A stretch of DNA of 64,000 nucleotides, from the NCBI RefSeq assembly GCF_009931435.1, contig NZ_CP043415.1; one strand, 5' to 3'. The translations under genes and the position numbers were made by a program. How positions within the stretch are numbered: the stretch's first letter is position 1; the number at the start of each line of letters is the position of its first letter. Of the stretch, positions 25,088 to 31,599 are shown piece by piece. This DNA comes from Escherichia coli. Its GTDB lineage: Bacteria; Pseudomonadota; Gammaproteobacteria; Enterobacterales; Enterobacteriaceae. Under the pieces are notes generated by a model. It saw only the letters and a list, made by a program, of their open reading frames with translations, did no database searches and was not told where the DNA came from.

Positions 25088-26102
25088 GCCATGAAGCAGA
25101 TTAAAGAACTTCAGCGCCTGCTCGGCAAGAAAACGATGGAAAATGAACTCCTCAAAGAAGCCGTTGAATATGGACGGGCAAAAAAGTGGATAGCGCACGC
25201 GCCCTTATTGCCCGGGGATGGGGAGTAAGCTTAGTCAGCCGTTGTCTCCGGGTGTCGCGTGCGCAGTTGCACGTCATTCTCAGACGAACCGATGACTGGA
25301 TGGATGGCCGCCGCAGTCGTCACACTGATGATACGGATGTGCTTCTCCGTATACACCATGTTATCGGAGAGCTGCCCACGTATGGTTATCGTCGGGTATG
25401 GGCGCTGCTTCGCAGACAGGCAGAACTTGATGGTATGCCTGCGATCAATGCCAAACGTGTTTACCGGATCATGCGCCAGAATGCGCTGTTGCTTGAGCGA
25501 AAACCTGCTGTACCGCCATCGAAACGGGCACATACAGGCAGAGTGGCTGTGAAAGAAAGTAATCAGCGATGGTGCTCTGACGGGTTCGAGTTCCGCTGTG
25601 ATAACGGAGAAAAACTGCGAGTCACGTTCGCGCTGGACTGCTGTGACCGTGAGGCACTGCACTGGGCGGTCACTACGGGCGGCTTCAACAGTGAAACAGT
25701 ACAGGACGTCATGCTGGGAGCGGTGGAACGCCGCTTCGGCAACGAGCTTCCGGCGTCTCCAGTAGAGTGGCTGACGGATAATGGTTCATGCTACCGGGCT
25801 AATGAAACACGGCAGTTTGCCCGGATGTTGGGGCTTGAACCGAAGAGCACGGCGGTGCGGAGTCCGGAGAGTAACGGCATAGCAGAGAGCTTCGTGAAAA
25901 CGATAAAGCGTGACTACATCAGTGTCATGCCCAAACCAGACGGGTTAACGGCAGCAAAGAACCTTGCAGAGGCGTTCGAGCATTATAACGAATGGCATCC
26001 GCATAGTGCACTGGGTTATCGCTCGCCACGGGAATATCTACGGCAGCAAGCCAGTAATGGGTTAAGTGATAACAGGTGTCTGGAAATATAGGGGCAAATC
26101 CA
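25088..26102 (+). mobile_element. IS2, 5'-truncated (~1.0 kb of 1.33 kb)
   Basis: InsC fragment from [35 protein letters not shown]; full InsD; right end ...GGGGCAAATCCA at 26102. Confidence 0.85.
25186..26091 (+). CDS. insD: IS2 transposase InsD (orfB)
   Basis: 301 aa matching IS2 InsD ([38 protein letters not shown]...). Confidence 0.9.
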
Positions 26103-26838: not shown

Positions 26839-27221
26839 ATTATAGCCTCCGAAAGGATAAAATACACCAGAACAGGAAAATTGCGCAAATATCAAATTTC
26901 ACTGATAAATGAAATACATGTTAAGTACAGTTTTGATGCCGCATCAGCGGCATGGAAGGCGGCATTCCGTTGTTGCATATGGCACAGGAGTAAAACCGCC
27001 GAAGCCCGGCGTCAGCCGGTACTGATTGATAGATTTCACCTTACCCATCTCCAGCCCTGCTAAGCCATACCCGTTTTCAGCCATGATAGAGCTTCTGTGC
27101 GCGGTCGGAGTGGTCCCGACGAGGGTTTACCCGAAGTCGGGGCGTATCTCCGCGTTAGCGGGCCGTCAGGGCCGCTTACGAGCGTGTACTCAATACTTCC
27201 AGCCAGAAGACTGACAGCGAT

Positions 27222-27244
27222 GATAATGTAGTTACAACATTCAT
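27222..27244 (-). promoter_or_regulatory. Ter (Tus-binding) site, inverted relative to the second site
   Basis: Contains the GTTGTAAC core (rc of GTTACAAC at 27231-27238); ATGAATGTTGTAACTACAT. Confidence 0.5.
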
Positions 27245-27360
27245 AATTGAAAGCGACTCTGTTCCGGCCCTTCGGGCCGGGGCGGCGGCGCTTATTAATT
27301 ATGAGGAGGGGCTTTGTGGTTTCAGTTCTGCGCGGAACCGGGGTTTTTCCGGAGTCTATG

Positions 27361-27383
27361 TTTGAATGTTGTAACTAAATTGG
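27361..27383 (+). promoter_or_regulatory. Ter (Tus-binding) site
   Basis: GAATGTTGTAACTAAATTGG matches the Ter consensus ATGTTGTAACTAAA. Confidence 0.6.
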
Positions 27384-27399
27384 CTCCAATCGGGGCCCG

Positions 27400-27620
27400 C
27401 CGCTTGCGGTGGGAGGTGCATATCTGTCTGTCCACAGGACAGGCAGTGAATAGGTTTTTTTTTAAATGAATGTAATTAGGTAGTTTAAAGGAGATATAAA
27501 CAGGTGTTTAAAAGATACATTGCACCCTGTAAGGCTGACGGCTGGCGCTTTATGACATGAACGGTTGTAACCTTATGGGGAAGTCCCTTGCAGTTAAATG
27601 TGGATAAGCAAAATCCCCCG
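27400..27620 (-). other. oriR: oriR-type replication origin region of the RepFIIA replicon (approximate)
   Basis: DnaA box TTATCCACA (rc at 27599-27607) ~175 bp downstream of the repA1 stop; A/T-rich stretch; position as in R1/R100. Confidence 0.5.
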
Positions 27621-27782
27621 TCTGTGAGGCGTGTTTTGTATCAAAAACAGGGGGGACCGGATGCACCAGAAGGTGGATGATGAGGTTGTTTTTTGTATGT
27701 GGTGCTGATTTTTTGTGCACTGGCGGGCTTCAGGCGTGCGAATGCCTCCGGCGCGTGCCGGATTATTCTGATGAGGTCACTT

Positions 27783-28640
27783 TCAGGGGGAAGCTGTGGC
27801 CAGCCGGCTGTAATTACGGTTACGTGACAGAATCATGCGCTCCTTCACACGACGCTCCACTTCGCGTTTTACCGCCTCACGACTGGCAGTGAAACGTCCT
27901 TCCGCGATTTCACGCGTCAGCTGCCGTTTCACCAGGGTGACAATATCCTGACGTTCCCTGTTCGCATCACGACGCGCACGGGCACGTTTTATTCCACGGG
28001 ACTTAAGCTCTGTCTGGTAACTGCGGAAACGCTCACGCACAAAACGCCAGGCTTTCGCTATCAGTTCATCCATACCCAGGGTATCCAGCCCCTGCTTTTT
28101 GCGCTGTCTGTTTTCCCATTCAACACGACTGCGGCGCGCAGCTGCCACTGCATCCTCAGACACATCAAGGGCAGCAAACAGAGCCGGTGTGAACGTGATG
28201 TCGGTCGGAATGTAGCACCCGATAAGCGGGTCATATTCCGTCTGGTAGGTAATCAGTCCCAGCTCTGACAGGAACGTCAGGGCCCGGGTGGCACGGGTGA
28301 TGGAGAGTTTTCCTGCACCGGACTCTGTCGCCAGTCCGCACTCAATGGCCAGCGTGGTGATGGAGCACTGGACGCGGTTGGCCAGCGGATCATAGTGAAA
28401 ACAGAGCCCCTGCAGCAGCGCATCAATGGCCCGGCGACGCAGTACCGGTGGCATGCGCCGACGCAGACCACGCGAACGGGCATGCGCCACATGAATGGCG
28501 AAATCAAAACGGGAGGAGAAGCCCACCGCCTTTTCCATCAGTTTTTCGCAGAACTTCAGCGTTCCGGCACCTTTACGGGGTGTAAACACCGGATTCGGGT
28601 TCTTTACCTGGCGGTAATACGTTTGTTGAAGATCAGTCAC
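27783..28640 (-). CDS. repA1: RepFIIA replication initiator RepA1, GTG start
   Basis: 285 aa from GTG ([40 protein letters not shown]...), near-identical to R100/R1 RepA1. Confidence 0.92.
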
Positions 28641-28707
28641 ACCATCCTGCACTTACAATGCGCAGAAGGAGTGAGCACAGAAAGAAGTCTTGAACTTTTC
28701 CGGGCAT
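28633..28707 (-). CDS. tap: repA leader peptide Tap (translational coupling to repA1)
   Basis: 24-aa [27 protein letters not shown] overlapping the repA1 GTG. Confidence 0.75.
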
Positions 28708-28800
28708 ATAACTATACTCCCCGCATAGCTGAATTGTTGGCTATGCGGTTTTATGGGGCCCCGGTAATCTTCTCGTCGCCAAACATAGAAAGATTATCGG
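28700..28800 (+). ncRNA. copA: copA antisense RNA region (approximate bounds)
   Basis: Region antisense to the repA leader with the conserved GGGGCCC-containing stem; bounds approximate. Confidence 0.45.
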
Positions 28801-28948
28801 GGTTTTTGCTTTTCTGGCTCCTGTACATCCACATCAGAACCAGTTCCCTGCCACCTTATGGCGTGGCCAGCCATAAAATTCCTTAAACGATCAGCAATCT
28901 ATCACGCACACCAGAAACAGGCAAGAATGTGATGTCGCTACATTTCAG

Positions 28949-29197
28949 TTAGCTAAAAGCACTCTTCTGCTTTATCAGTTCGGCAATCATCTCAGCCTGA
29001 GTAACACCCTCAGCTTCACACATCTCCTGCAATTGCGCTTTTAACGCAGCAGGAATAAACACTCTGAGTTCTTTATGTGTGGCTCGTTTTCTTGCCAGGG
29101 ATGCCTGCTGACGTTCTGCAAGCGTCAGAGGATTACCTTTTCTGTATGCTCGCTTTGTACCTGATGAGGAAGTCACTGCATTTTCTGTCTGCGACAT
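28949..29197 (-). CDS. repA2: replication regulatory protein RepA2 (CopB)
   Basis: 82 aa, [11 protein letters not shown]...; position upstream of copA/repA1. Confidence 0.85.
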
Positions 29198-29480
29198 CTC
29201 GCCTCCTCAATTCTCAAACAGGGATCGTTTCGCAGAGGATACTACAGTTTTTTGAAATCAGCGACTTGAAAGTTGTGACGATGATCTGTGTTGGCGCACA
29301 AATCATGTCTGATTACGACCGTTTAATGTGATTTTGATAATGAAATGACTGAAAAGATGGAAATGCCTTAACCTGTGTGCCGGCCCCGGGCGGGACCGGC
29401 TGTTTCTGGCATGTCGGGTGTCTGCCCCTGAAATACCTCACACTTCCGGAAAGCGGGGACTTCCCTCCCCGCCCGGCAGC

Positions 29481-29687
29481 TTACTTCCGTGCTTCGTAGG
29501 CCAGAGTTACCTGCACCACTGTATTTCCCCTGTGAATATTCAGCTCACATAACCGTTCCCTGAATATCAGTGAAAAACACAACACCGTGGCGCACACGGC
29601 GAGCAACCCGATAAGGGCATATTTCGTCATAAACTTTGACCTCTCTGCAAGGAAGAGGCTACAATCAGTAGTGTTAAGGTACTTCAT
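29481..29687 (-). CDS. srnB: Hok/Gef-family type I toxin (SrnB-like)
   Basis: MKYLNTTDCSLFLAERSKFMTKYALIGLLAVCATVLCFSLIFRERLCELNIHRGNTVVQVTLAYEARK; hydrophobic Hok-type core from MTKYALIG. Confidence 0.8.
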   Translation of the reverse strand: MKYLNTTDCSLFLAERSKFMTKYALIGLLAVCATVLCFSLIFRERLCELNIHRGNTVVQVTLAYEARK

Positions 29688-29909
29688 GCAGGCCTCACGA
29701 GTTAATGGATTAACAAGTGGGGTCTTCGCATTTCTGGTACCTGCGTCTTGCCTGAACCAGAAAGGCTCAGACACCCGCCGCGATAATACCACATTCCCTG
29801 TTACTGACCATTCCCTCCATTTCCCGCTTTTCACTACAGAAAAGCCGGGGGCGGGGAAAACTTGCTTTTTCCCGTCCCCGGGGTTGGACAACTGAGCAAC
29901 GCGAAGGCG

Positions 29910-30857: not shown

Positions 30858-31599
30858 TTTACTCTCCGTCACTGATTACTTTTCGTGATTGCATGAATTC
30901 CATGCCGGGATGAATAATGGCTCACGTATCACGCAAAAAATAAACCGTTGAGTTGTGATCAATTCAACAAAATAAGATGAGGTGACTTAATACACATATG
31001 GCTATGTGTTACTAAAAACGCTGGTCAGCCAGCCTGACCAGACACATAAGAAACAACGTCTCATGCATTATTCAGCCTCCTGATACCTGGAGTAACGGAG
31101 GCTGCTTTTTCTGTCACATATTTCCCGTGAAGGCGTTACCGGTTTCCGTGGGTAACATGTGACGGAGATTATATTTTTAATCTCCGTGTATTCATCATAC
31201 CTGCTCTTGCTGACAGGATAACTGTGTTATATCGCAGGCTACCGGATGTGGCGCTGAATATAACGGTCATAGATAAGTCATACATGCCCTGCTCAGGGGA
31301 TTAGCGATAAGACGGACCGGGAGAGTCATCTCCCGGTTTTTCTTTATCCTGCCGCGAATACAGCCCGGCTGTCTGTCAGATTCACCGGATAACCCTACTG
31401 TTATGCATGCCACTGTCACCTCCTGCTTCTTGAAATTCATCACATTTTTTATCCCTGCTGGCTTACCCGGGATGTGAAATATGTTAATTCTGTGATGTCC
31501 GTTTGAAAGACAGGGCAACTCCTTCTTACACCACTATAATAATAATAACGATCTGCCATATAAGTCTGATCCCCCGGAGCTCCGCGACGGGGGTTATTT

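Follow-up and report, generated by a model that had tools for sequence, protein, structure and literature searches.

Plasmid R1 carries the Ter sites terRL and terRR as an opposed pair just downstream of its replication origin oriR, between the origin and the start of the leading strand, where forks are arrested in a Tus-dependent manner (Hill 1988; Krabbe 1997, summarised in PMC10331603 and PMC4999828). One site acts against a fork running back and the other against a fork that has gone a full round; without Tus-Ter, R1 gives rise to rolling-circle forms and multimers and becomes unstable (PMC10331603, PMC4999828). Here, we analyse a replicon with the same opposed pair in a stretch of Escherichia coli DNA of 64 kb (contig NZ_CP043415.1; the whole stretch is referred to as the window), in which an earlier note, made from the DNA letters, had seen a complete R1/R100-type replication control region. 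With high confidence, a stretch of 2.4 kb on the minus strand is a basic replicon that is intact and belongs to the IncFII (RepFIIA) family, resembling those of R1 and R100 and likely to work as they do. The molecule that carries it is a large conjugative E. coli virulence plasmid.

Organisation of the replicon

The replication genes are encoded on the minus strand, a point left unsaid in the earlier note. Along this strand the modules follow each other in the order copB, CopA/CopT, tap, repA1, oriR, the two Ter sites, a structured block and a small open reading frame (ORF); their limits are collected in Table 1. The claim that the replicon is intact holds, as RepA1, CopA, tap, copB, oriR and the Ter sites are all full-length, with no truncation, frameshift or interruption, and the protein and RNA family models for RepA1, Tap, RepA2 and CopA all score above their curated cut-offs.

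For comparison we used R100, F, pMAR2 (from the enteropathogenic E. coli strain E2348/69; NC_011603) and seven other plasmids; R1 was compared via R100 and its published description. The relatives sampled are close ones, with the remote IncFII(K/S/Y) lineages outside the sample. R100 (NR1; NC_002134, around 88.1–90.5 kb) has the same order of elements. The alignment to R100, a check suggested beforehand, is colinear, starting upstream of copB and ending at about position 26940, and both Ter sites of the window align with Ter sites of R100. The description as R1/R100-type is thus right for the architecture, in which the R100 basic replicon is matched element by element, and wrong for the CopA and CopB alleles, which are discussed below.

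The replicon is of a type already known and can be found, with annotation, in public plasmids of E. coli; it is hence ordinary. More than 5000 plasmid records match it. Identity over the 2.4 kb is 100% for the E. coli plasmids CP057923 and CP057960 and, among the matches listed, at least 99.4% for eight more. The annotation of CP057923 contains the same replicon genes with the same limits. What is gained here is a correct annotation, with the replicon's strand and its exact coordinates fixed and a complete IncFII-family module with a Tus-Ter fork trap described.

Table 1. Elements of the replicon, in their order along the minus strand, with window coordinates.
Element	Position	Strand	Basis
copB upstream region and 5′ leader, presumed constitutive copB promoter	29198–29300	−	96.1% identity to R100, 100% to pMAR2
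repA2/copB, 82-residue transcriptional repressor of the repA promoter	28949–29197	−	PRK13702, 138 bits (cut-off 87); PF10723, 118 bits
copB-copA spacer, presumed CopB-repressed repA promoter	28812–28948	−	promoter and operator assigned from family knowledge
CopA antisense RNA, complementary to the repA leader (CopT)	28725–28811	+	Rfam RF00042
CopA promoter, TTGAAC-17-TATACT	28690–28718	+	promoter scan; ends 7 nt before the Rfam CopA match
tap, leader peptide of 24 codons	28633–28707	−	TIGR03475, 60.6 bits (cut-off 35); PF08048, 54 bits
repA1, replication initiator of 285 residues, GTG start	27783–28640	−	TIGR03474 (incFII_RepA); PRK13750
DnaA box, TTATCCACA	27599–27607	−	sole exact copy in the window
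oriR, putative origin for RepA1 and DnaA	27420–27607	−	96.8% identity to R100, 100% to pMAR2
oriR-proximal Ter site, counterpart of R1 terRL, TGTTTGAATGTTGTAACTAAATT	27359–27381	+	13/13 positions of the TerB core
oriR-distal Ter site, counterpart of R1 terRR, ATTATGAATGTTGTAACTACATT	27225–27247	−	13/13 positions of the TerB core
Conserved structured block, candidate leading-strand priming start ('G site' of R1)	27090–27190	+	position, conservation, folding
ORF of 46 codons in a repA4-like position	26944–27084	−	'hypothetical protein' in CP057923

The Ter sites

Two Ter sites in opposite orientation had been proposed, and both are present, although the positions first assigned to them are shifted by 2–3 bp in the TerB register. 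Each matches chromosomal TerB of E. coli K-12 at every position of the core, defined as positions 6 and 8–19 of the 23-bp site, including G6 (C6 on the other strand). The outer positions 1–5 and 20–23 differ from TerB, and the overall matches of the two sites are 17/23 and 18/23. They are 135 bp apart, one on each strand and 39–180 bp below oriR, in a unidirectional replicon, whereas the chromosomal Ter sites are hundreds of kilobases apart.

The extended core GNRNGTTGTAACTA of 14 nt occurs exactly twice in the window, at 27364–27377 (+) and 27242–27229 (−), and was absent from 100 shuffled versions. Looser searches do not single out the sites: allowing two mismatches returned 7 matches against 6.9 expected, which is chance level, and the bare octamer GTTGTAAC is not rare, with 3 copies against 1.85 expected. 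The Ter signal is therefore carried by the exact extended core only. The third octamer, at 27564–27571 (+) inside oriR, was considered as a Ter site and rejected, as it agrees with only 8 of the 13 core positions and lacks G6. All three octamers of the window fall within 340 bp, and the one in oriR is unchanged in all ten aligned plasmids, with bases 2–3 nt away varying in three of them.

In the ten-plasmid alignment, the cores stand out from their surroundings. All 14 nt of the distal core are unchanged throughout, and a variable stretch rich in insertions and deletions follows. In the proximal site, 12 of the 14 core positions are invariant, positions 7 and 8 being the ones that vary, and a block of 13 nt, TGTTGTAACTAAA, is unchanged in all ten plasmids between variable flanks. 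Around and between the two sites, 65–70% of the columns are invariant, and insertions and deletions occur. Identity to R100 over the Ter region is 87.3%. At position 8 of the proximal site the window has an A, as do the chromosomal Ter sites, where R100 has a G; pMAR2 shares the A8 variant.

Polarity of the Ter sites and the predicted fork trap

In strain MG1655, TerB reads 5′-AATAAGTATGTTGTAACTAAAGT on the plus strand, directly upstream of tus, and it stops clockwise forks. At the non-permissive face of a Ter site, the flipped C6 is on the leading-strand template (PMC10331603). From the orientation of TerB in MG1655 and this C6 rule it follows that a fork is stopped when it enters a Ter site from position 1. 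Applied to the window, the rule predicts that the proximal site (+) stops forks moving to higher coordinates, back to oriR and repA1, and that the distal site (−) stops forks moving to lower coordinates, which arrive via repA1 and oriR. Facing each other, the two sites would thus make up a trap: whichever side a fork comes from, it would cross the first site and stop at the second, within the trap. This polarity, derived from the sequence, is like that of the R1 pair.

The role of the trap would be as follows. Host Tus would bind both sites, with opposite polarity, in the interval that separates oriR from the presumed start of the leading strand. The proximal site would stop any fork running back to oriR, and the distal site would stop the productive fork after one full round, preventing over-replication, rolling-circle synthesis and multimers. 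There is no tus gene in the window, so the protein would be supplied by the host, as E. coli K-12 does.

Initiator and origin

The claims made for the initiator region are confirmed in detail. The repA1 gene starts with GTG, encodes 285 residues and scores 579.8 bits against TIGR03474 (cut-off 446.9) and 618 bits against PRK13750, the latter over residues 1–285. An automatic ORF list starts the gene earlier, at a GTG at 28652; the identical public record annotates the start at 28640. RepA1 is identical to its R100 counterpart in 275 of 285 residues (94.8% identity for the nucleotides) and to that of pMAR2 in 278 of 285. The leader gene tap, which is 98.7% identical to R100, has the 24 codons previously read, and its 3′ end overlaps the repA1 start codon by 8 nt. 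Translation of repA1 is presumably coupled to that of tap, as family membership suggests.

The DnaA box expected some 175 bp past repA1 is located 175 bases after the stop codon and is invariant in the ten-plasmid alignment. We take the limits of oriR to be those of the 188-bp minimal origin of R1, which extends from the DnaA box on. Within these limits, the DnaA box is at the repA-proximal end, an AT-rich stretch is found around 27500–27455, and 86% of the columns are invariant across the ten plasmids. RepA1 would be the rate-limiting initiator, acting together with host DnaA on the adjacent downstream oriR, and replication would be unidirectional, towards lower window coordinates.

Copy-number control

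The copB gene (repA2) had been placed within positions 27222–28800; it is present, but lies beyond that range. Its product is identical to CopB of pMAR2 in 82 of 82 residues, to RepA2 of R100 in 51 of 82 and to the F RepFIC protein in 49 of 82, and the nucleotide stretch of copB is 63.9% identical to R100. CP057923 annotates the gene as 'replication regulatory protein RepA'. The copB promoter was not called by a consensus promoter scan and is assigned by homology. From 28900 downstream, the spacer between copB and copA is near-identical in the window, R100 and F, and the whole spacer is 100% identical to pMAR2.

The copA antisense region is also present, as noted. CopA matches the full length of the RF00042 model with 85.2 bits (gathering score 60; E = 2.6e-15) and folds into two stem-loops and a U-tail, with a free energy of −37.8 kcal/mol (z = −4.99). 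CopA would pair with the repA leader and block translation of tap, so that repA1, being coupled to tap, would not be translated either. CopB would provide a second level of control over RepA1 by repressing the proximal repA promoter. The region is additionally covered by an ORF of 163 codons (28395–28886, +), antisense to the 5′ end of repA1 and spanning copA, which is probably an annotation artefact; in some RefSeq records, a third feature named 'replication protein RepA' underlies the match to CopA.

The CopA allele differs from those of the reference plasmids. Identity is 80.2% to R100 (73 of 91 aligned positions), 81% to F RepFIC (74 of 91) and 83.7% to pMAR2, and the differences from these three and from the seven other plasmids cluster in upper stem-loop II. 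The loop hexamer CGCCAA is kept, in common with R100; the flanking upper stem differs and is 4 nt shorter on balance. CopA of the window thus has neither an R100-like stem-loop II nor identity or near-identity to F RepFIC. The control region is a mosaic with respect to pMAR2, with 100% identity in copB, spacer, tap and oriR but not in CopA; the identity of the regions flanking copA suggests that the recognition region of the antisense RNA was replaced locally. Among the 72,556 records of PLSDB, a CopA that is 100% identical occurs in only 10, mostly cattle-associated E. coli, and the next-closest allele (97.4%) is found mostly in ruminant-associated E. coli plasmids.

Upper stem-loop II is the recognition element of CopA, and changes in it alter incompatibility in the IncFII family. 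The CopB and CopA identities to R100 show that the replicon is not an R100 or R1 allele, and with alleles unlike theirs the specificity of copy control, and with it of incompatibility, is probably different. On these grounds the replicon would probably be compatible with R100 and R1. We tentatively suggest, as a possibility somewhat short of an even chance, that the CopA variant is an incompatibility specificity of recent origin, through which these toxin plasmids can coexist with others of the IncFII family. The non-R100/R1 alleles of CopA and CopB bear on replicon typing and on predicting which plasmids coexist.

The downstream end of the replicon

Beyond the Ter sites is a structured block that is identical to R100 in 101 of 101 positions. 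No other non-coding block of the ten-plasmid alignment is as well conserved, 91% of its columns being invariant. Folded as single-stranded DNA, its plus strand reaches −27.2 kcal/mol (z = −3.1), compared to −19.9 kcal/mol (z = −0.8) for the minus strand; replication towards lower coordinates would use the plus strand as its leading-strand template. Similarity of the block to the complementary-strand origin of phage G4 is at chance level on both strands.

The 46-codon ORF that follows has no match in Pfam or NCBIfam. Homology among the IncFII-family replicons ends at about 26940, just beyond this ORF. Directly past the replicon, on the minus strand, is a toxin-antitoxin pair consisting of a Gp49-family (HigB/RelE-like) toxin (26838–26527) and a helix-turn-helix antitoxin (26527–26240), where R100 has pemIK. 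Each plasmid examined has a different pair at this place: yacAB in pHK17a, Phd/YefM in pMAR2, and a ribbon-helix-helix protein with a RelE/ParE toxin in two others.

Alternative explanations

An intact replicon could still be a silent or redundant copy on a plasmid maintained through another replicon, as for RepFIC of F (NC_002483, 3.2–3.96 kb). The latter has the same order of copB, CopA and tap, with 96.7% identity over tap and its surroundings, but an inserted transposon of the Tn3 family truncates it after tap. The plasmids identical over the 2.4 kb are also typed by MOB-suite as multi-replicon (IncFIA, IncFIB, IncFIC), so a replicon outside the window could drive replication. Against this, the replicon of the window is uninterrupted, with every part full-length, and an examination of parts of the window turned up no second replication gene. 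The MOB-suite labels in PLSDB are unreliable: R100 itself is called 'IncFIA', and we rejected them as a source for the name of the replicon. We therefore consider a silent copy quite improbable and an active IncFII-family replicon the better explanation, the multi-replicon typing being one point that weighs against it. Others concern the start of replication. To get to the presumed start of the leading strand, the helicase loaded at oriR has to unwind the DNA towards lower coordinates, and in this first unwinding it would run into the blocking side of the distal Ter site. The reviews on R1 (PMC10331603, PMC4999828) give no explanation for passage through the distal Ter site; the question arises for the R1 family as a whole and is not particular to the window. 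The structured block, moreover, is a candidate for that start by position, conservation and folding only.

If the two GTTGTAAC-containing sites were chance occurrences or vestiges, Tus would not bind them and no termination would take place near the origin. The frequency of the bare octamer, the copy in oriR that does not resemble a Ter site and the chance-level yield of the two-mismatch search are in line with this, but none of them accounts for two exact extended cores that shuffling does not reproduce, for a full match to the TerB core in both, for their opposed arrangement at the location of the R1/R100 Ter sites, or for cores that are conserved across ten plasmids while neighbouring bases vary. 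Chance or vestigial sites are thus hardly credible, and we retain the interpretation as a Ter pair predicted to bind Tus. A strict R100/R1 replicon, with the same CopA/CopT specificity and hence incompatible with these plasmids, has somewhat more in its favour: the replicon differs little from R100 in RepA1, oriR, tap and general layout, and the CopA loop hexamer is shared. It is nonetheless unlikely, given the low identity of CopB to RepA2 of R100 and of CopA to its R100 counterpart, which has a longer and different upper stem-loop II. A replicon of R1/R100 architecture with its own copy-control alleles agrees better with these data.

Other genes in the window

Just upstream of copB is a post-segregational killing locus of the hok/sok type (29481–29776, −), with an Rfam sok match of 99 bits at 29620–29776 and an ORF for a Hok-family toxin ending at 29481. 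Further on, between a nuclease gene and finO, the Rfam family AS-pc02 ('antisense to pHK01_099') is matched at 31034–31158 (+) with 47.6 bits (gathering score 40).

The window also encodes a full-length cytotoxic necrotizing factor of the CNF1 family (15128–18172, +; 1014 residues, 1958 bits) and a cdtABC operon (21877–24058, +), described in the identical public plasmid as cytolethal distending toxin type III. CNF and cdtABC together are the gene set of a 'Vir'-type plasmid of necrotoxigenic E. coli. In an ORF at 12402–14091 (+), the first 218 residues or so match the N-terminus of enterohemolysin EhxA/RTX hemolysin and the ORF then runs on into a reverse transcriptase/maturase of a group II intron, which suggests a hemolysin gene that an intron has interrupted or that was truncated in some other way. 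Nested insertion sequences are present at 5617–8727, where an IS21-family element (istA, 6185–7207; istB, 7204–7986) splits an IS30-family transposase gene (5617–6132 and 7996–8727). An IS2 transposase gene (25186–26091) is located between the toxin-antitoxin pair and cdtC.

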